Part shown: piece by piece, positions 4,172 to 56,955 of the stretch
How positions within the stretch are numbered: position 1 is the stretch's first letter
How the letters are laid out: the number at the start of each line of letters is the position of its first letter
Origin: a virus
Taxonomy: Duplodnaviria > Caudoviricetes
Strand: one strand, 5' to 3'
Virus record (IMG/VR): IMGVR_UViG_3300049988_000286
Coordinates: 64,001 to 128,000 of that record
Length of the DNA: 64,000 nucleotides
Notes under the pieces: generated by a model
Databases searched by the model: none
Told to the model about the DNA's origin: nothing
The model's input: only the letters and a program-made list of their open reading frames with translations
Made by a program: the position numbers and the translations under genes

Positions 4172-4259
4172 TGGTTCTCCCCCGAGGACTCGAACCTCCA
4201 TCCCTTACGAGAGCCCACGATTCAGAGCCGTGTCGCCTTACCAGTTAGCGGAGGGGAGA
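4172..4259 (-). tRNA. tRNA-Gln(CUG) with long variable arm
   Basis: Acceptor TCTCCCC/GGGGAGA, anticodon stem CACGG/TCGTG with loop CT-CTG-AA, T-loop TTCGAGT, encoded CCA, 16-nt variable region. Confidence 0.85.
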
Positions 4260-4268
4260 ATATGTGAT

Positions 4269-4342
4269 TGGATCGGGCGACAGGGATCGAACCTGTATTG
4301 TGAAGGCCAAAACTTCATGTCCTGCCATTAGACGACGCCCGA
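4269..4342 (-). tRNA. tRNA-Gln(UUG)
   Basis: Acceptor TCGGGCG/CGCCCGA (U1-A72), stem TGAAG/CTTCA with loop TT-TTG-GC, T-arm ACAGG-TTCGATC-CCTGT, CCA. Confidence 0.92.
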
Positions 4343-4477
4343 GCACAGGCGTCCGCGCGGACGCCGCTTCAGCGTTGCTGTCGTTGGGCCTCGAAGGGCA
4401 GCAGGGCGTGTGAATTGGTCACGAGTTATTTATCTCACAGTGTGCGCGGCGTTGTCAACAATCTTTTTCAACCACGA

Positions 4478-4483
4478 TAAATA
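4478..4483 (+). promoter_or_regulatory. TAAATA late-promoter motif
   Basis: TAAATA-N5-ATG. Confidence 0.7.
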
Positions 4484-4488
4484 TCGCC

Positions 4489-4920
4489 ATGCGCGATCTC
4501 ATCAACCTATTCGAAGACCAGCAGTGGCCAGCCACCATCTCGGGTGACGATCTCGCCCTGCATGTGCAAGAATTGCATCACACTCCCGAGGATTTCATCG
4601 ACGGTGACATCGAGAACAACATCGCTTCGTTTGGGGTCTATAACTTGCGCACTATTCCAATCACGGACATACGGCGCGGTATGTACACGATCTACGACGA
4701 TCTCGTGGGCGAGTATGCGGCAGTGACCACCCAAGCACCACCCGTGATCGTTGATCCCAGTCATGGATTGGTCATCGATGGTAATCATCGTGTCGAAGCA
4801 GCGGTGGCGAGAGGCGAGACGGAAATTCTCGCCTACGTGGGTGACCCAGAGACCTACTCCTACATCAGCAACGATGAGGATGAGGATGAGGATGACGAGT
4901 ACCGACCGAAGGGCTGGTAA
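4489..4920 (+). CDS. ParB/Srx-like domain protein with MRxxIxLxE leader
   Basis: MRDLINLFE; PPVIVD...VIDGNHRVEAA; acidic tail. Confidence 0.75.
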   Translation: MRDLINLFEDQQWPATISGDDLALHVQELHHTPEDFIDGDIENNIASFGVYNLRTIPITDIRRGMYTIYDDLVGEYAAVTTQAPPVIVDPSHGLVIDGNHRVEAAVARGETEILAYVGDPETYSYISNDEDEDEDDEYRPKGW

Positions 4921-4922
4921 GG

Positions 4923-5057
4923 TTAAGGACGATACCCCTCAAGATAGGGACCACGACAACCGCTCACCCGCTTCATGAACGAGATGCACTCCTCCCATGT
5001 GCCGATGAAAAACACGCGATCGTCGCGGACCGATCCCAGCACCTGATACCGCTGCAT
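4923..5057 (-). CDS. small hypothetical protein (below ORF-track cutoff)
   Basis: 44 aa, in a chain of TGATG-overlapping minus-strand genes. Confidence 0.45.
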   Translation of the reverse strand: MQRYQVLGSVRDDRVFFIGTWEECISFMKRVSGCRGPYLEGYRP

Positions 5058-5197
5058 CAGAAATCGCCCCAATTGTCGTCTTTGCGTTTCTCGACCTTCT
5101 TGGGCTTCTTCGCCTTACATACATCGGTGTCGTAGACGTTCTGTCCACATGCGAGACAGACTTCGGTATATTGTTGGATGGGTCCAAGATGGGCCAT
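5057..5197 (-). CDS. small Cys-containing protein
   Basis: CLACG...C; TGATG overlaps. Confidence 0.5.
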   Translation of the reverse strand: MAHLGPIQQYTEVCLACGQNVYDTDVCKAKKPKKVEKRKDDNWGDF

Positions 5198-5397
5198 CAG
5201 GCGCTCCGCCGTTCGAAGAGACAGCACACCACGATGCCGCCCATGTAGCCGGTATTGGCGATCGAGACGTTGACAAGTTCCACCGGCGATCGACCTAGCG
5301 AGTCGCTGTGACCTGCCGTCACCTCTGCGCAAAGCTTCTCCACCACGGTATCGATTTCACCCGGTGTACACGACTTGGAGCGTGTGAAGCGGTTCAT
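5197..5397 (-). CDS. hypothetical protein
   Basis: TGATG overlap. Confidence 0.5.
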   Translation of the reverse strand: MNRFTRSKSCTPGEIDTVVEKLCAEVTAGHSDSLGRSPVELVNVSIANTGYMGGIVVCCLFERRSA

Positions 5398-5651
5398 CAC
5401 GCAAACCTCAACTTGAACAATTCGGCATCTTCGAGGGTCCGGAAGGCGAAAACCCATTCATATCCAGAGAAGACATCGGGATCGGGTGCTCCCCAATCGT
5501 CACCGAAGGTTTCATGGAGCCAACCCATCACCTCATCCTGCCGGTCGAGCCAATGCTCGCTCACGGCATTGAAGGCGATTGTCCGCGCATCGATGGTGAC
5601 TTCCCAAGGATGGTCGTTACGCGCGATTGTGATCGGAAGGCCTAAAGACAT
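5397..5651 (-). CDS. DAxLF small-protein family member
   Basis: WLHETFG...FRTLEDAELFKLRF. Confidence 0.7.
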   Translation of the reverse strand: MSLGLPITIARNDHPWEVTIDARTIAFNAVSEHWLDRQDEVMGWLHETFGDDWGAPDPDVFSGYEWVFAFRTLEDAELFKLRFA

Positions 5652-5678
5652 GGAGGCGTGCTACCACCCCCATATCAG

Positions 5679-5963
5679 TTAGGCAATTTCTTCCCGCAGG
5701 AGTCGATCGAGATAGTTCTGGAAGCTATCGGCGAGGACGCTCCAGACCCAGTAGTGCTCTCCCAGCCGAGCATCGCTCGCCCCCATGGTGGCACGCATCT
5801 GCGTCTCGCGCTCGTAGTTGTGCCCCTCCTCGTTGTCGTAATTGCCGTGATAGGCGGTCTCGCGATGAACCCCGTAGGCCTTGACGAGATCGCGCGGCTT
5901 GATCTTCATCACGCCATAGTAGGTGTTCTGCTTGAGATAGCGCTTTGCGAGGTCGAGATACAT
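5679..5963 (-). CDS. hypothetical protein
   Basis: MYLDLAKR start just after the upstream stop. Confidence 0.6.
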   Translation of the reverse strand: MYLDLAKRYLKQNTYYGVMKIKPRDLVKAYGVHRETAYHGNYDNEEGHNYERETQMRATMGASDARLGEHYWVWSVLADSFQNYLDRLLREEIA

Positions 5964-5964
5964 A

Positions 5965-6153
5965 TCACTGCGCCCACTGGCGCGCGAGCGAGTCGCGCTG
6001 CTGCCGAAGGTGGAAGAGGAAGTTGCTCGCCTCCACTTCACCAGCATCCAAGCGGGCGAGACCCTCGAAGACGAAGCGCAGCGTTTCCGCCGCATCCTTG
6101 ATCTGGCGGATGGTGAGGGTCTCGGGATTGAACGGGATCGGGTTGGTGGCCAT
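5965..6153 (-). CDS. hypothetical protein
   Basis: ATG after AAAGGAAG. Confidence 0.6.
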   Translation of the reverse strand: MATNPIPFNPETLTIRQIKDAAETLRFVFEGLARLDAGEVEASNFLFHLRQQRDSLARQWAQ

Positions 6154-6210
6154 CAGGGCTTCCTTTCGCCCCAGACCTACACCGAACTACTCTACTCGTC
6201 AAATCAATAT

Positions 6211-6339
6211 TGTCGCGAACCGGACTCGACACCGGCTGTTCGGTTTCGTCTTACTCAACCCTCGCGGGTTGGTCGGGGATCGAACCCGTTACAAACCTAC
6301 CAACTGACGTACGGGCGTGTCCTTCCACGCTGCCGCGAC
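6211..6339 (-). ncRNA. 129-nt tRNA-like RNA with expanded core and two T-arm-like hairpins
   Basis: Acceptor GTCGCGG/TCGCGAC, D-like GCGTG-GAAGGA-CACGC, terminal GCCGG-TGTCGAGT-CCGGT, internal CGGG-TTCGATC-CCCG; no encoded CCA. Confidence 0.6.
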
Positions 6340-6345
6340 GCCCTC

Positions 6346-6374
6346 GTAGTAGCGCTATGCGATATTGTCGTCAA
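6346..6374 (-). promoter_or_regulatory. sigma70-like promoter for the tRNA-like RNA
   Basis: TTGACG-N17-TACTAC; predicted +1 near 6339. Confidence 0.6.
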
Positions 6375-6399
6375 CGGTTTATTGCTCTACTTCGATGGG

Positions 6400-6627
6400 A
6401 TGAACCGAACGCCTTTCCGTATCGAGACGCAAGAACTGACCCGTTGGTCGGGCGAGCGGCTTGAGTTGAAAGAACCCTATGGCTCTTGGTGCAGGGACAA
6501 CATTGGCGGCATAGGGTTCGAGATTTGGTTCTGTCACGATTGGAACCGGCTCCGCACAACCCTTTATCTCGCCTCCGAGGAAGACCTGACCCTGTTCCGA
6601 ATTCGCTTTCCCGAGGTTGCAGAATGA
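6400..6627 (+). CDS. DAxLF family member
   Basis: WCRDNIG...LASEEDLTLFRIRF. Confidence 0.7.
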   Translation: MNRTPFRIETQELTRWSGERLELKEPYGSWCRDNIGGIGFEIWFCHDWNRLRTTLYLASEEDLTLFRIRFPEVAE

Positions 6628-32922: not shown

Positions 32923-34137
32923 ATGGTACCATTTTCAGGGATGATCACCCACGATGGGACGATCACCTTCACCCATAGCGACGGACGCATTCACAGCGTC
33001 TTGACTACTCACTCGCAGTACGGGCGTGTCAAGGATTTGCTCCGCTCGATGGCGGGCCAGCCCGATGACTCACCGATCCGCGACCAGTTGCTCGAACTCG
33101 CCCAGCCCGCGCGGCTGATCACGCGATCGACGCGTGGCCTCGTCACGGTCGAGAACAACCAAGTCCTTTATCGAGGTGTGCCGGTCCGCAACGTCGTGGC
33201 GGAACGCATCCTTTGGATGATCGGCGACGGCTTCGACGCTGCCCCCATGCTGGCCTTCTTGGAGAACGTGAAGGAGAACAGCAGCAACCGGGCGGTGGAG
33301 GAACTCTACCGCTTCATGGAAGCCGCGAAGATGGGGATTACCCGCGACGGTATGATCCTCGCCTATAAGCGCATTCGTGGCGACTACCGAGACATCTACA
33401 CCGGCGAGATGGACAACAGCGTCGGGGTCACCGTCGAAATGCCCCGCAACGAGGTCAACGACAATCCGAACGAGACATGCTCGAACGGGCTGCATGTCTG
33501 CTCGATGTCCTACCTGCCCCACTACGGCGCGGGGCCGGGCAACCGTGTGGTGATCTGCCGCATCCATCCCCGCGATGTTGTTTCGGTGCCGATCGATTAC
33601 GCGAACGCGAAGATGCGCGTGTGCCGCTACACGGTCATCGAGGAAGTGACCGACCAGATGCAGGACGTGCTGGCCTCGAAGCCGGTGTTCGAGCATGAGG
33701 AAGACGCAGACGAGGCGCAGTGGTCATGGGGCGACGATGACGAGGAACTCACCGAGATCGAGATTGATGACACGGATGAGATCGATGGGATCGCCGAGTT
33801 CTTCGGAGACGATGAAGAGCTTGAAGAGGCTGAAGAGCTTGAACAGGTTCTAGAGGTTGACAATAGCGCAGCCCCCACGGAGGTAAAAACGCCGATCCTC
33901 GACTTCACCGCCTTGGTAGCGCGAGTGACCCAAGTTGTTCTAGATTGTGCGAAGGATCAGCTAAAGGTCGAGCGCATCGATCCCAACCATGTGCTGCTCG
34001 ATCTCGGCGCTGACGATCTCGATGTAATCGAATTGGTCATGCTGGTAGAAGACGTGCTTAATGTCGAACTCGGCGATGAATGGGATGCCGACAAGACTGC
34101 CAATCACATCATCGACGCGGTATTGCAGCAGATGTAA
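32923..34137 (+). CDS. rIIB: rIIB-like protein with acidic linker and C-terminal ACP-like domain
   Basis: LYRF...IT.DG..LAYK, PRNEV.DNP..TCS.GLHVC, P.DVVSVP.DY...KMRVC.Y; then DLGADDLDVIELVM. Confidence 0.88.
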   Translation: MVPFSGMITHDGTITFTHSDGRIHSVLTTHSQYGRVKDLLRSMAGQPDDSPIRDQLLELAQPARLITRSTRGLVTVENNQVLYRGVPVRNVVAERILWMIGDGFDAAPMLAFLENVKENSSNRAVEELYRFMEAAKMGITRDGMILAYKRIRGDYRDIYTGEMDNSVGVTVEMPRNEVNDNPNETCSNGLHVCSMSYLPHYGAGPGNRVVICRIHPRDVVSVPIDYANAKMRVCRYTVIEEVTDQMQDVLASKPVFEHEEDADEAQWSWGDDDEELTEIEIDDTDEIDGIAEFFGDDEELEEAEELEQVLEVDNSAAPTEVKTPILDFTALVARVTQVVLDCAKDQLKVERIDPNHVLLDLGADDLDVIELVMLVEDVLNVELGDEWDADKTANHIIDAVLQQM

Positions 34138-38237: not shown

Positions 38238-38314
38238 GCTCGTGTGGCTGAAATGGGAATGGCTACGGACACTAAATCCGTAAGATGTGGGTTCGATCCC
38301 CACGGCGAGCGCCA
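38238..38314 (+). tRNA. tRNA with anticodon CUA (amber suppressor-type)
   Basis: GCTCGTG/GGCGAGC acceptor (one mismatch), ACGGA-CACTAAA-TCCGT, GTGGG-TTCGATC-CCCAC, G73, CCA. Confidence 0.8.
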
Positions 38315-42350: not shown

Positions 42351-42425
42351 TGGTGGGAATACTCGGATTCGAACCGAGGACACACGGTTTTAGGGACCGC
42401 TGTTCTACCGCTGAACTATACTCCC
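42351..42425 (-). tRNA. tRNA with anticodon CUA (amber suppressor-type, Trp-like anticodon arm)
   Basis: GGGAGTA/TATTCCC, GTTC-AGCGGTA-GAAC, GCGGT-CCCTAAA-ACCGT, CTCGG-TTCGAAT-CCGAG, A73, CCA. Confidence 0.85.
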
Positions 42426-50536: not shown

Positions 50537-51124
50537 GTGAGTCATACCAACGATGTGCCGGGCCAGCCCCCGCGTAAACTCTCTGCCCGCAATCTCGCCG
50601 GATCGAGCGCAGACCGTCCCAAAGAGGATTTCTACCCAACTCCGCCCGAAGCCGTCCTTGCCCTTTTGGCAGAAGAGACCTTCGAGGGATCGATCTGGGA
50701 AAACAGTTGCGGGGATGGTGCGATCTGTCGGGTGCTCGAAGAGGCCGGATACCGCGATATCATCGCGACTGACCTCATCGATCGCGGTTACGGTGAAGCC
50801 CCGCACGACTTCCTCACCTCGACGCTAACCGCAGACAACGTGGTGATGAACCCGCCCTTCTCGATGGCGCAGCAATTCGTTGAGCTATCTCTTGCTCGCA
50901 CCACGGGTAAGGTAGCGATGTTGGGGAAGCTGGTTTTCCTAGAGGGTCAGAAGAGGAAGGCGTTCTTCACACAGACACCGCTGCGCACCGTCTATGTCTT
51001 CAGCAAGCGGGTCAACTTCTACCGCAATGGGGAGCGGGGTAATTACTCGACCTCCACGATGGCATTCGCGTGGTTCGTTTTCGAACATGGCTACACGGGT
51101 GAGCCGACGATCAAGTGGATATAG
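50537..51124 (+). CDS. DNA methyltransferase-like protein (N6-adenine/N4-cytosine type)
   Basis: DFYPTP, WENSCGDGAI, TDL, MNPPF; TAAATA-N4-GTG. Confidence 0.85.
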   Translation: MSHTNDVPGQPPRKLSARNLAGSSADRPKEDFYPTPPEAVLALLAEETFEGSIWENSCGDGAICRVLEEAGYRDIIATDLIDRGYGEAPHDFLTSTLTADNVVMNPPFSMAQQFVELSLARTTGKVAMLGKLVFLEGQKRKAFFTQTPLRTVYVFSKRVNFYRNGERGNYSTSTMAFAWFVFEHGYTGEPTIKWI

Positions 51125-52899: not shown

Positions 52900-53433
52900 A
52901 TGATCCCTGAACGCTTCCGCAAAGCCATCTACGAGCGCCACATCGCAGAGATGCAGATAGCGGAAGCGCGAGCCATCTACGAATCGACGATCTTCTCGCC
53001 CGAGCAGATCATCGACGAACTGCCCCGCGCGAAGTCGAGCCACATGTTCCTCATCCTCGATCAGCCACCCGATCGGAACAGGATCAAGCACGAGTTAACC
53101 AAAGAGATGATTAAGCGGATGCGTGAGCCATTCGCCAGAGCGGGCCTTCTACAAATCTGCCGTCCACGGCAGCGCACCGATGAGGAATGGGTGATTGAAG
53201 CCCGAGAGACTGAACTCTACTACCGTGCCACCAAGGCGGCAGAACAGGGCCTGTGGTGGGACGGCAGAGCCCAAACGCCTCATCACCCCTCGACGGTAAA
53301 GTGGTGGCGCGAGTACCTCGCGAGCGAACGCATCAGTCTCATGAAGATTCAAAAACTAGAGCGCAACGATCTCACTCAACCGTGCTTCGACGGCCTCGAC
53401 GTTGATGTCACCATGGCACGATTAAGGTTATAA
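52900..53433 (+). CDS. hypothetical protein
   Basis: 177-aa ORF. Confidence 0.6.
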   Translation: MIPERFRKAIYERHIAEMQIAEARAIYESTIFSPEQIIDELPRAKSSHMFLILDQPPDRNRIKHELTKEMIKRMREPFARAGLLQICRPRQRTDEEWVIEARETELYYRATKAAEQGLWWDGRAQTPHHPSTVKWWREYLASERISLMKIQKLERNDLTQPCFDGLDVDVTMARLRL

Positions 53434-53568: not shown

Positions 53569-54075
53569 ATGAGGATGAGGATTTTGCTGGTGGGCGCAGC
53601 CGCGCTCGCCATGCCCGCGCTGGCGTCGGCGCAGACGCTCGGTGAAGAGGGCAGCTTCCAGTTTCGCAATCCGGCGGAGCGCAGCGTCGCGCTATCGATC
53701 GCGCAGACCATCGAGGCCAAGCAGGGCGGTCAGTTCGAGGCAGGTTTCGGCGGCTTCGGCGGCACCGGTGCGGGTTCGGGCGCGGGTGGTTCGGCGGCGA
53801 ACACCAACAACCTGTTCCAGTTCATCGATCAGTCGCAGATCACCAACAACTGCACGTCGAGCGGCGGCGTCGGCTCGCCGATGTCGTGCGGGGGTGGCGG
53901 CTCCAACACCGTGTCGGGCACCAATCTGACGAGTTCGGGTAACTCGAACAAGTCGGATACGACGCTCACGGGCAACACCGTCACCAATGCCAACAACACG
54001 GCGAACAACACGCTGAACCGTGGCGACGGCAACAACAACACGTCGACCACGACGACGAACACGGGTGGCCGCTAA
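53569..54075 (+). CDS. secreted Gly/Asn/Thr-rich HfaA/curlin-like protein
   Basis: Sec signal ending ASA-Q; low-complexity N/G/T/S C-terminus; directly upstream of the CsgG/HfaB gene. Confidence 0.55.
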   Translation: MRMRILLVGAAALAMPALASAQTLGEEGSFQFRNPAERSVALSIAQTIEAKQGGQFEAGFGGFGGTGAGSGAGGSAANTNNLFQFIDQSQITNNCTSSGGVGSPMSCGGGGSNTVSGTNLTSSGNSNKSDTTLTGNTVTNANNTANNTLNRGDGNNNTSTTTTNTGGR

Positions 54076-54076
54076 C

Positions 54077-54994
54077 ATGGCGCGCCTTTCTGCCATCATG
54101 GCCCTCGCCGCCATGCTCGCCCCGAGTGTCGCTGTGGCGCAGGATCAGCCGATCTCGCTCAAGCTGGGATCAGCGCCGACCAACAATATCTCGCCGATGC
54201 AACTGGGCATCCAGTGCGTGCGGACGCGCCTCGACCAGCAGTCGAAGACGATGCGCTTCTCGGTCGGCGAGGTCCGTGACTATACGGGCAAATTCTCGAA
54301 CGAGGCCAGCGAGGGCGGTTTCCGCATCACGCAGGGCGGCACCCTGATGGTCATCTCGGCGCTCGGCCAGCTTGGTCAGCACGTCGATCTCGTGGAGCGT
54401 TACGACACCCGTATCGCCGAACAGGAGATCGCGCTGGCGCGCAACCAACTCGTGCAGGATCAGGGAGCCGGTGGAGCGATCCTCCGTCCCCTGACTGCGG
54501 GACAGTATTACGGCTCTGACTACTACATCGTCGGGGGCGTGACGGAAGCGAATTACTCCATCAGCAGCGGTGGCGCGGAAGTCCGTGTCATGGGTGTCGG
54601 TGGTGGTGCTCGCTACTATTCGATGAACGTCGCCGCCGACCTTCGGCTCGTCGATGCCCGAACCCTTCGGGTGATCAAGACGGTCTCGGTCCAGAAGCAG
54701 TTCGTCGGACACGAGGTCAAGGGCGATACTTTCCGATTCTTCGGAACGACGCTCATTGACATTAATGCCGGGAAGAAGAAGAACGAGCCCCTCCAGCTTG
54801 GTGTTCGCGCCACGCTCGAATACGGCACGCTCGATCTCATTTCGGCGGCGTTCGGGCAGGAATTCACTCCCTGTCAGGCACATGCCGACTACGGGTACAC
54901 GGCTGGGGTTCAGCAGCGTCTCGTGAAGGCTAGTCGGGGAGGGGCGACACAACTCGCGGCCTTCGCTGCTGGGTCGGCCAAGACCACGAAGTAA
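54077..54994 (+). CDS. hfaB: CsgG/HfaB family outer-membrane secretion pore
   Basis: VGEVRDYTGK, ITQGGTLMVISAL, VERYD, I.GGVTE.NY.I.SGG, VAADLRLVD..T, EPLQLGVR. Confidence 0.88.
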   Translation: MARLSAIMALAAMLAPSVAVAQDQPISLKLGSAPTNNISPMQLGIQCVRTRLDQQSKTMRFSVGEVRDYTGKFSNEASEGGFRITQGGTLMVISALGQLGQHVDLVERYDTRIAEQEIALARNQLVQDQGAGGAILRPLTAGQYYGSDYYIVGGVTEANYSISSGGAEVRVMGVGGGARYYSMNVAADLRLVDARTLRVIKTVSVQKQFVGHEVKGDTFRFFGTTLIDINAGKKKNEPLQLGVRATLEYGTLDLISAAFGQEFTPCQAHADYGYTAGVQQRLVKASRGGATQLAAFAAGSAKTTK

Positions 54995-55056
54995 GTGGCG
55001 ACACCGTTACAGGTCAGGTATGGTGCTTGACTTGGATTTAATTACAGGGAATTTCA

Positions 55057-56484
55057 ATGCGTAATCTTCTTCTCGGCGCTTCGGCGCTGATCGCAATCGC
55101 GGTTGCGGGTTCGGCTTCGGCGCAGAACATCTCGGTCCAGAGCAATCAGACCAACAACGCTACTGTCACCGCGAACACCGAGCTTCGCAACATCGAAGTC
55201 GGCACTCGTCCCACCACCACGACTTTCGTCGGCGGCAACCTGACCGGCACCGCGCTCGCGGTCGGCAACCTGATCCAGACTTCGGCTCCCATCGGTCAGG
55301 GCTTCTCGGAGGCTGCATCGAACAACGGCGGTGTCCTGTCGCCGCAGAACAACAGCGGCACGATCACTGCCAACGTCGGTTTCGGCTCCGGCGTCACTGC
55401 TGGCGTGACCAACGTAGCGGCCACCGCAATCGCCAACAACGCCCTTCTGTCGGGTGTGCAGGTACAGAACGCGGGTAGCCGTGTTGACGGCCAGTTCAAC
55501 AACGGTGCGGTCACGGCGAACACCACGCTCACCGGCGGTGGTTACAATGTCGGTAACCTGACTGCTGGATCGCTGGCGATCGGCAACAACTTCGTCGCAA
55601 CGGGTTCGGGTGCAGTCTACCTCGGCGCTGGTGCTGGCACCAACGGCGGTGCCCTCACCCAGACGAATCAGGCGGCGATCTCCGCTAACACGGTGTTCGT
55701 CAACGGCGGCAACTCGGGCGCTCTCGTCGCCAATGCCAATGCCATCGGTAACGCGTTCTCGCCGTCTGCCCCGGTGGTCAGCGTCGCAGTCACCCAGAAC
55801 AACAGCGGTCCGCAGAACGCCTACCTCGATGTGAAGCAGGGTTCGCAGTCCCTGAACGCTTCGGGTTCGGCAGTCGGCAACCTCATCGCGCCGACCGGTG
55901 GTTCGTTCAACGGGGTCAACCTCGTCCAGAGCAACTCGGCGGGTCAGACCTCGACGGTCACGGTGGGCAACACGCTTGCGGTGTTCAACGGCGGCAACAC
56001 CAACGTTAATTCGCTGGCTGTCGGCAACGCGATCCAGATTTCGCAGACCGGCGCTGTCGGGCTGGCAACCGGTTCGCAGACGAACACCGGGCCGCAGTCG
56101 GCGAGCGTCTCCGTTCCCGGTGGTGCAAGCTTCACGGGCGGGTCGGCCTTCGCTTCACAGGCGTTCGGTAACCTGATCGCGGTGAACACCGGTTCGACCT
56201 TCGGATCGGGCATTCCGCAGAACAATGCGGCGACTGTGACGGCATCCACGCGTATCGATACCGGTGCGTTCGGCCCCAGCACCACCGCCTCGTCGTTCGC
56301 GGCTGGCAACATCCTTCAGGTTCAGGCCGGTGGATCGGTTGAGGGCATCAACGGTTCTGCTAACCAGCTTAACACCGGGGCGATCAATTCGCTCACCTCG
56401 GTCACCGGTGGCCTGTTTGCGGGTAACCTCGCGGCATCGTCGCAGTCGATCGGTAACGTGACCAGCGTCACGATCGGCCGCTAA
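55057..56484 (+). CDS. secreted HfaD/curlin-like repeat protein
   Basis: Signal peptide plus nine ~45-50 aa repeats, each with QxNx(A/G) and (A/S)xAxGN. Confidence 0.7.
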   Translation: MRNLLLGASALIAIAVAGSASAQNISVQSNQTNNATVTANTELRNIEVGTRPTTTTFVGGNLTGTALAVGNLIQTSAPIGQGFSEAASNNGGVLSPQNNSGTITANVGFGSGVTAGVTNVAATAIANNALLSGVQVQNAGSRVDGQFNNGAVTANTTLTGGGYNVGNLTAGSLAIGNNFVATGSGAVYLGAGAGTNGGALTQTNQAAISANTVFVNGGNSGALVANANAIGNAFSPSAPVVSVAVTQNNSGPQNAYLDVKQGSQSLNASGSAVGNLIAPTGGSFNGVNLVQSNSAGQTSTVTVGNTLAVFNGGNTNVNSLAVGNAIQISQTGAVGLATGSQTNTGPQSASVSVPGGASFTGGSAFASQAFGNLIAVNTGSTFGSGIPQNNAATVTASTRIDTGAFGPSTTASSFAAGNILQVQAGGSVEGINGSANQLNTGAINSLTSVTGGLFAGNLAASSQSIGNVTSVTIGR

Positions 56485-56512
56485 CCCTCGCCCACACGGG
56501 CTAGGACCAAGG

Positions 56513-56545
56513 AGAGGGATCGGACCAACATCCGGTCCCTCTTTT
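56513..56545 (+). terminator. rho-independent terminator
   Basis: GAGGGATCGGA/TCCGGTCCCTC plus TTTT. Confidence 0.7.
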
Positions 56546-56556
56546 ACCAAGGAAAA

Positions 56557-56955
56557 GTGATGCTCCTGATCGCCCTGATGTTGCAAGCCACTGCTGTCGG
56601 CGAGACCGTCTCCCCCACGGTGGTGCGGGTCCGCGAAGTGCATCGAGTGGGTCAGCGCCTCACGGTCGATTACGAGATCGAGAATCGTTCAAAGACCCGC
56701 ATCCCGGTGCCGGTGCCTCCCGTGACGATCACCGACCCGGCGGGACGAAGCCTTCCCGTGGGGAAGCCCAGTGAGGGTGATGCTCCCAAGAGCGTCAAGA
56801 CCGAGATCGAACCCGGCCTCACGGTCGGTCAGTCGGTCTCCGTTGATCTCGGGCAGAACATCACCGCGACCGTCTATGGCATGAACCCGAAGACCTACAA
56901 CGAATCCACATGGTATTTCGTCGTCGGTGGGGACCGGGTGCCCTTCAGTTTCTAA
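56557..56955 (+). CDS. secreted Ig-like beta-sandwich protein (possible assembly accessory)
   Basis: Signal peptide; TVDYEIEN.S...ITDPAG...EI.PG.T. Confidence 0.55.
   Translation: MMLLIALMLQATAVGETVSPTVVRVREVHRVGQRLTVDYEIENRSKTRIPVPVPPVTITDPAGRSLPVGKPSEGDAPKSVKTEIEPGLTVGQSVSVDLGQNITATVYGMNPKTYNESTWYFVVGGDRVPFSF

Follow-up and report, generated by a model that had tools for sequence, protein, structure and literature searches.

A candidate Hfa/curli-type export cassette in a jumbo phage genome

In the curli system (type VIII secretion) of Escherichia coli, the pore protein CsgG must be lipidated to reach the outer membrane, and the N-terminal peptide of CsgF docks in the CsgG barrel. In Caulobacter crescentus, the CsgG-like pore HfaB is required for HfaA and HfaD to arrive at the cell surface, and HfaD, which localizes there in an HfaB-dependent manner, forms multimers resistant to sodium dodecyl sulfate (PMC6707917). 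Marine phage researchers have been puzzled by phage-encoded CsgG-family pores, since no fibre genes seemed to come with them, and the csgGF genes of pelagimyophages and the Methylophilales phage Melnitz were described as an incomplete curli module of open purpose, with uptake, “sibling capture” and lysis timing as suggestions (PMC9004378). Here, we analyze a cassette of four open reading frames (ORF1–ORF4) at positions 53569–56955 of a 64,000-nucleotide stretch of a jumbo phage genome (the window), in which a CsgG-family pore is accompanied by a predicted cargo assigned to the HfaD family and by two further proteins that are conserved with it. We consider it reasonably likely that the cassette is an accessory (“moron”) module of the phage, a self-contained Hfa/curli-type (type VIII-like) system in which ORF3, and probably ORF1, would be exported onto the infected cell's surface and ORF4 would play an accessory part. 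This reading builds on directly established features, namely the gene content and order, the family assignments and predicted folds of the products, the conservation of the cassette as a unit and a pore clade specific to phages.

The window comprises bases 64001–128000 of the 499,572-bp IMG/VR virus record IMGVR_UViG_3300049988_000286, which stems from a leaf metagenome and is rated complete by CheckV. The cassette and its associated features are as follows.

53569..54075, + strand: ORF1, 168 amino acids, small secreted protein rich in Gly, Thr, Asn and Ser
54077..54994, + strand: ORF2, 305 amino acids, HfaB-like CsgG-fold protein, predicted outer-membrane pore
55010..55034, + strand: weak hairpin in the ORF2–ORF3 intergenic region, found by consensus scan only, which may be meaningless
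55057..56484, + strand: ORF3, 475 amino acids, secreted HfaD-family repeat protein, predicted parallel beta-helix
56510..56545, + strand: rho-independent terminator-like hairpin after ORF3 (free energy −35.4 kcal/mol, z −5.8), followed by a U-run
56557..56955, + strand: ORF4, 132 amino acids, conserved accessory protein with a hydrophobic N-terminus and an immunoglobulin (Ig)-like beta-sandwich model

An initial annotation of the window had described four contiguous phage-borne genes in the order of hfaA-hfaB-hfaD, encoding among others a CsgG/HfaB-family pore, a nine-repeat HfaD-like protein for which a beta-solenoid was expected and an Ig-like protein behind a terminator, and our analysis bears out each of these points. 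All four ORFs are present on the + strand with intact reading frames, and the record that carries them encodes T4-type topoisomerase II subunits and rIIA/rIIB, so that the phage context is real.

The longest frame of ORF2 (54020–54994) opens with a GTG at 54020. However, the ATG at 54077, which begins one base after the TAA of ORF1 (54073–54075), opens a Sec-type signal (MARLSAIMALAAMLAPSVAVAQ, cleaved before DQ) and is therefore taken as the likely start; judged from the sequence, ORF1 and ORF2 are translationally coupled. ORF2 belongs to the Pfam CsgG family (PF03783; 63.2 bits against a cut-off of 20.8), aligns with residues 33–234 of E. coli CsgG including both transmembrane hairpins (E = 7e-14, PDB sequence) and scores 244 bits against phrog_20175. 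Its best NCBIfam model is HfaB (NF037935), at 206.3 bits, which lies under the equivalog cut-off of 300. When the HfaB model was run over a sample of 401 alphaproteobacterial genomes, scores fell in two bands, 363–416 bits in 14 genomes (canonical HfaB) and 130–234 bits in about 16; the phage pores, at 206–235 bits, belong with the lower band. A lipobox cysteine (L-x-[GA]-C) is present in every bacterial HfaB or HfaB-like copy examined, as well as in the pores of Kabachok and of the metagenomic contigs L042 and L044, whereas the pores of the window, CcrColossus/CcrPW and L043 have an ordinary signal peptide instead, that of ORF2 being of the signal peptidase I type (AVAQ, then DQ) with no lipobox cysteine. 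Given its score, its lack of a lipobox and its placement in a separate clade (see below), ORF2 was rejected as an HfaB equivalog.

ORF3, the predicted cargo, starts with a signal peptide (MRNLLLGASALIAIAVAGSASA, cleaved before QN at an AxA site, read by eye). Eight strict x(A/S)xGN motifs, one degenerate copy (AIANN, N127) and ten QxN motifs define nine repeats spaced 43–56 amino acids apart. Most repeats retain the QxN and GN positions; across twelve homologues, many of these positions show little or no variation, and they may stack into Gln/Asn ladders. ORF3 and its relatives carry a precomputed assignment to Pfam PF27277, which the contig table names HfaD; the match to the NCBIfam HfaD model (NF037936) is weak (23.3 bits, E = 3e-5, cut-off 100), as it is for the CcrColossus and Kabachok homologues (24–31 bits). 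The family is small, with nine representatives among 1.84 billion in a single-sequence HMMER search. An AlphaFold2 model built from a 12-sequence alignment is all-beta and confident, with a predicted local distance difference test score (pLDDT) of 85.9 and a predicted template modelling score of 0.87, and exhaustive VIA-align comparison matches it only to parallel beta-helix or solenoid proteins, so that ORF3 is confidently predicted to be a beta-helix/solenoid. The top match is CsgA of the curli/CsgG system (8c50), at Z 15.4 with a poor superposition (root mean square deviation (rmsd) 9.0 Å); beta-helical adhesins and secretion domains (Fap2, HMW1, EtpA and HxuA) and pectate-lyase-like folds follow at Z 13–15, with an rmsd of about 4 Å over 225–254 residues. 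An atlas shape search with ORF3 gave no meaningful global match, and its family profile found nothing among PDB sequences.

The model also resembles the beta-helices of tailspikes and depolymerases (Z 10–13), as it would if ORF3 were a virion fibre or tail-associated protein unrelated to the pore. Virions, however, assemble in the cytoplasm, whereas ORF3 has a Sec signal peptide and carries the Pfam HfaD assignment; moreover, it always adjoins the pore gene, lies far from recognized structural genes and falls in no PHROG structural family. We regard this explanation as the most improbable of those considered.

ORF1 occupies the hfaA/csgF slot directly upstream of the pore gene. It consists of a Sec-type signal peptide (MRMRILLVGAAALAMPALASA, cleaved before QT at an AxA site, read by eye), the hexapeptide FQFRNP, a short helix and a tail of low complexity that contains two conserved cysteines (NNC...C); the mature protein is composed of 19% G, 15% T, 14% N and 12% S. 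No family was found for it in Pfam, NCBIfam or PHROG, the ESM Atlas returned a poor model (pLDDT 0.45) with no informative family, and nothing relevant was found among PDB sequences. Homologues lie directly upstream of the pore gene in phages (42% identity in Kabachok), on metagenomic contigs and in bacterial HfaB-like operons, and they share the motif (W/F)(Q/R/K)Fx(T/N)(P/S/A) right after the signal peptide, the short helix and the G/S/N/T-rich tail. ORF1 thus belongs to a separate small-protein family that takes the place of HfaA beside HfaB-like pores outside Caulobacterales. The HfaA-like identity proposed for ORF1 in the initial annotation, by contrast, did not survive comparison: there is no NCBIfam HfaA match, hhalign of the ORF1 family with nine true HfaA proteins gives a probability of 41% over 16 columns only, and the motif of true HfaA from nine canonical operons (AIGNxLNVV..NTVIV.S.Q.N.G) differs from that of ORF1, which we therefore reject as HfaA. 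HfaA has been described as confined to Caulobacterales (10.1101/2022.07.20.500906), which fits with a different protein holding its slot elsewhere.

The N-terminus of ORF1 resembles CsgF rather than curlin. The exact hexapeptide FQFRNP is common to the mature N-termini of ORF1 (QTLGEEGSFQFRNPAERS...) and E. coli CsgF (GTMTFQFRNPNFGG..., taken from the annotated K-12 locus), is found a single time among the six-frame ORFs of the whole genome (500 kb) and has a composition-based chance of about 1e-7 of appearing within 30 residues; in pelagiphage CsgF the corresponding residues are HEFKNP. In CsgF, FQFRNP is followed by FGGxPxNG, which ORF1 lacks. We put forward a CsgF-like docking peptide in ORF1 as a hypothesis, and not as family membership, leaning slightly against it.

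ORF4 differs from the other three products in both its N-terminus and its position. Sec signals had been assigned to all four proteins; those of ORF1 to ORF3 stand, as read by eye, whereas the hydrophobic N-terminal stretch of ORF4 is short and has no positive n-region, and its export is for that reason probable but less certain than that of ORF1 and ORF3. The ORF4 model is an Ig-like beta-sandwich (pLDDT 72.6) with matches to 3cfu (Z 9.0), 4r4g (Z 8.7) and 4les (Z 8.5) at an rmsd of 2.4–2.9 Å, and these best matches (YjhA, YcdA and 4les) are domains of small secreted Bacillus lipoproteins. ORF4 is 41% identical to the gene directly after the HfaD-like gene in L042; a relative occupies the same place on L044/L045 and two more are present, the family sharing a conserved C-terminal motif, NESTWYFVVGGxRVPF(R/S)F; no ORF4 is found in the Stellaceae chromosomal operon discussed below. 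Searches of Pfam, NCBIfam, PHROGs and PADLOC assigned it to none of their families. Two candidate identities were rejected: CsgE, since none is among the top structural matches, and HfaE, since its motifs PHPASQV, CNERSLLR and DGGVG (10.1101/2022.07.20.500906) are absent from ORF4 and four relatives. The hairpin between ORF3 and ORF4 is kept in relatives: one follows the HfaD-like gene of CcrColossus (z −4.3) and of L042 (z −4.1), and that of L044 is weaker (z −1.6). Thus, ORF4 is probably made at a lower level by read-through, or separately. The scan that returned the weak hairpin upstream of ORF3 finds as many terminator-like sites in the region as shuffles predict.

A tblastn search of the pore against 50,697 phage records recovered HfaB-type pores at 49–57% identity in CcrColossus, CcrPW and five Brevundimonas jumbo siphophages including Kabachok, and distant CsgG homologues at 26–30% identity in Pelagibacter phage HTVC008M, Melnitz phages and one Salmonella phage fragment. 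CcrColossus, CcrPW, Kabachok and L043 possess a three-gene form, in which ORF1-, pore- and ORF3-type genes are followed by a terminator. The earlier view that a complete pore-plus-substrate cassette is unusual in phages was thus overstated, the more so as the pore recurs in four Brevundimonas phages besides Kabachok and pelagimyophage and Melnitz records list curlin-associated proteins after csgG. The four-gene form is found on the independent metagenomic contigs L042 (69 kb) and L044 (6 kb), whose only genes in common with this genome are the four of the cassette, at 76–77% identity for the pore and 38–56% for the others. In all seven phage or phage-like copies, the HfaD-family repeat protein is co-conserved with the pore. 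As a side observation, L042 has a MHYT-GGDEF-EAL gene (cyclic diguanosine monophosphate) two genes upstream of its cassette, and RF-1-domain, ClpP and two weak integrase-like genes nearby; the coordinates given for these observations are 4415–6442 (−), 914–1354 (−) and 1–22 (−).

An IQ-TREE phylogeny of 43 sequences, for which E. coli and pelagiphage CsgG provided the root, recovers the seven phage or phage-like pores (window, CcrColossus, CcrPW, Kabachok, L042, L043 and L044) as monophyletic, with an ultrafast bootstrap of 99 and a Shimodaira–Hasegawa-like approximate likelihood ratio of 95. Their sister is a chromosomal copy from a Stellaceae metagenome-assembled genome (98/96), and the next branch is a Bosea/Pseudoxanthomonas/Rhizobiales group. 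Canonical Caulobacterales HfaB forms a separate clade (100/99), so that the HfaB affinity assumed for the pore is upheld at the level of the wider HfaB-like group but not at that of canonical HfaB. This topology argues that the phage pores are a lineage of their own rather than plain copies of the Caulobacter holdfast-anchor genes. Bacterial HfaB-like operons keep the same order of small protein, pore and repeat protein. Upstream of the Hfa-like operon of the Stellaceae genome (L007:1022–1822, +) lies a gene for a secreted GNxN/GNFN-type repeat protein, which may be a further fibre or an ice-binding-like protein.

These relationships bear on whether the phage proteins might act on a host Hfa-type anchor, mixing with it or replacing it so that the polar adhesin is shed or altered and the cell disperses, or so that the adsorption pole is blocked. 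Caulobacter and Brevundimonas, hosts of the cultured phages that carry the module, are holdfast-forming Caulobacterales, and a non-lipidated pore could conceivably be a poison subunit; anchor mutants are known to shed their holdfast (PMC6707917). However, the phage pores are distant from canonical HfaB (about 206 against 363–416 bits, separate clade), and ORF1 is not HfaA, so it is not obvious that mixed complexes could form. The closest bacterial relatives, moreover, include Pseudoxanthomonas and Bosea, genera not known for holdfasts. Interference with a host anchor therefore appears unlikely to us, and for the same reasons a specific holdfast link for this phage is not supported.

Slightly less doubtful, though still unlikely, is a pore-centred role, in which the channel would permeabilize the outer membrane for lysis timing, uptake or release, and ORF1, ORF3 and ORF4 would be gating or accessory proteins. 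A role as gated secretin or pinholin has been proposed for phage CsgGF (PMC9004378), a CsgF-like N-terminus of ORF1 could make a plug or constriction, and altered pore behaviour is suggested by the three phage copies that have lost their lipobox. Yet strict co-conservation of a secreted 475-residue HfaD-family beta-helix in all seven copies is hard to square with a lysis pore, and pelagiphage CsgG proteins form a clade to which this pore lineage is not related; nor were lysis genes recognized beside the cassette in the ORF list or by Pfam scan.

The guanine-plus-cytosine (GC) content of the cassette is 62–64.5%, against a genome mean of 57.5%, and GC at third codon positions (GC3) ranks at the 87th–99th percentile genome-wide, as would fit a module that was acquired. 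Together with the distribution among phages and the sharing of nothing but the cassette with L042 and L044, the raised GC and GC3 point to a horizontally mobile accessory module. The composition would also suit a passenger with no role in infection, whether recently captured bacterial DNA or an assembly chimera, and in public runs, which gave short contigs only, no single independent contig spans the cassette borders. Against this, all frames are intact, the cassette sits about 117 kb from the nearest end of the 500-kb contig, and three additional studies, among them phyllosphere and wastewater studies, contain near-identical short contigs of the cassette and of both flanks. In addition, the module is monophyletic in phages of two unrelated lineages at 35–77% identity, which implies long-term purifying selection. 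A passenger origin is accordingly very improbable.

Returning to the export reading, several findings weigh against it. Chief among the internal doubts is the missing lipobox of ORF2: E. coli CsgG without its lipid reportedly remained soluble in the periplasm in the work of Goyal and colleagues in 2014, and because of this, outer-membrane insertion of ORF2, and with it normal pore assembly, is uncertain. Pfam CsgF (PF10614) has no match at E ≤ 10 in ORF1, nine relatives or the six-frame genome, and hhalign of the ORF1 family with CsgF places the motif in register but is not significant (P = 0.016, probability about 3%). Foldseek found no significant match for the ORF3 model in PDB or AlphaFold database clusters, and Curlin_rpt (PF07012) has no match at E ≤ 1 in ORF3 or the whole genome. 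Furthermore, the phage status of L042 and L044 is not proven, no RNA run among the public runs searched contains the cassette stretch, and a holdfast link is not supported, as described above.

As we picture the export system, all four products would enter the periplasm via Sec, and ORF2 would assemble as a CsgG-fold channel in the outer membrane. ORF3, a 45-kDa HfaD-family beta-helix with predicted Gln/Asn ladders, would be the main cargo, exported in a pore-dependent manner and serving as an adhesin or fibre subunit on the infected cell. ORF1, small and largely disordered, would be its partner, whose FQFRNP and helix may dock in the pore in the way of CsgF and couple the cargo to the surface, and ORF4 would act as an Ig-like periplasmic or surface accessory, present at a lower level behind a leaky terminator. 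The net result would be a remodelled surface of the infected cell, through adhesion and aggregation or through receptor masking. The phage might benefit through the attachment or clumping of cells close to new hosts, through masked receptors, through a disturbed host anchor or through the pore-centred role in lysis. The proposals of amyloid display, superinfection exclusion, aggregation and holdfast hijacking made in the initial annotation go beyond what the sequence supports.

A broader proposition, which we advance only tentatively and hold to be rather doubtful, is that jumbo phages of at least two unrelated lineages keep their own type VIII-like module of pore, CsgF-like docking protein and HfaD-type fibre, with which the dying host displays an adhesive or shielding fibre. 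If true, the fibre could hold infected cells by fresh hosts on leaves or in biofilms, or block further adsorption, and it would explain the presence of CsgG-family pores in T4-like and other large phages. That the small protein beside HfaB-like pores outside Caulobacterales represents a distinct family, with an N-terminal peptide like that of CsgF, hints at a mechanistic bridge between curli and the holdfast anchor. Caulobacter and Brevundimonas phages that can be cultivated contain the same module, so the question can be tested in C. crescentus, a model with holdfast and adhesion assays. The module already sits unrecognized in published phage genomes: GenBank labels the three genes of CcrColossus, CcrPW and Kabachok as lipoprotein or hypothetical, CsgG-like or “hfaB”, and hypothetical, respectively, the main text of the phiCbK/CcrColossus genomics paper makes no mention of the cassette, and literature searches on hfaB, hfaD, CsgG, curli and holdfast with phage names found no published description of a phage hfa-like operon.

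As for the genomic surroundings, megablast of the cassette region against GenBank phages gave no match, no relatives of the phage were found in IMG/VR via a flanking 380-residue gene, and none of the four cassette proteins matches a PADLOC defence model. A T4-type late promoter TATAAAT at 53429 was dismissed, as only four copies occur in the 64 kb, 4 of 100 shuffles do equally well and the site overlaps the upstream stop codon; a sigma-70 scan upstream of the cassette found nothing. Immediately upstream of the cassette, positions 53060–53428 form a stretch that varies among related strains: contigs X2 and X3, from two independent runs, match the window to 53060 and then share one alternative sequence. 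Further upstream and in the same direction as the cassette, a 195-residue ORF with an NPPF motif (50537–51124, +) resembles N6-adenine DNA methyltransferases. The rIIB homologue (32923–34137, +) matches acyl-carrier-protein PHROGs at C-terminal residues about 344–402 and may be a fusion of the two. Four transfer RNA (tRNA) genes are encoded in the window, two with the anticodon CUA (amber-suppressor-like, labelled tRNA-Pyl by ARAGORN) and two for tRNA-Gln, with coordinates given as 38238–38314 (+), 42351–42425 (−) and 4172–4342 (−); TAG is the rarest stop in 405 long genome ORFs (TGA 192, TAA 147, TAG 66).

A comparison with known systems shows that the cassette shares the order of small secreted protein, CsgG-like pore and large secreted repeat protein with the HfaA-HfaB-HfaD (plus HfaE) system of C. 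crescentus, that HfaB is the best family of ORF2, and that ORF3 has the precomputed Pfam HfaD assignment. In Hirschia baltica, hfaE, which encodes a small secreted protein, follows hfaD (10.1101/2022.07.20.500906) as ORF4 follows ORF3. The cassette departs from this system in the low HfaB score, clade and missing lipobox of its pore, in the lack of HfaA and HfaE motifs in ORF1 and ORF4, and in being carried by a phage. With curli it has in common the CsgG fold of ORF2, a small gene directly upstream of the pore gene, as csgF in K-12, the FQFRNP hexapeptide, and a Gln/Asn-rich beta-solenoid repeat cargo whose top structural match is CsgA; however, neither Pfam CsgF nor Curlin_rpt is matched, the repeats measure 43–56 instead of about 22 amino acids, no CsgE-like gene is found in the phage cassette, and CsgA superposes at an rmsd of 9 Å.

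Among phages, pelagimyophage HTVC008M and Melnitz are T4-like and likewise possess a small CsgF-type gene and a CsgG-family pore gene, followed by one for a repeat protein. In GenBank, genes for “curlin-associated (repeat) protein” directly follow csgF-csgG in HTVC008M (L047:1868–4972) and Melnitz-3 (L051:1911–5597), the latter record also listing a FecR-domain gene there, in contrast to the statement of the Melnitz paper that such phages lack fibre genes (PMC9004378). Their pores are only 29–30% identical to ORF2 and group with the E. coli CsgG outgroup, and their cargo has curlin-associated repeats where that of the window is of the HfaD family; the module of the window is an acquisition independent of theirs. 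CcrColossus (gp241–243), CcrPW (gp250–252) and Kabachok (01660–01640), in contrast, are siphophages (Dolichocephalovirinae) and not T4-like, and they have three genes with no ORF4 and a repeat protein of 309–355 rather than 475 amino acids. Nevertheless, with a pore 49–57% identical to ORF2, the same gene order and a terminator, their modules belong to the same lineage as that of the window.

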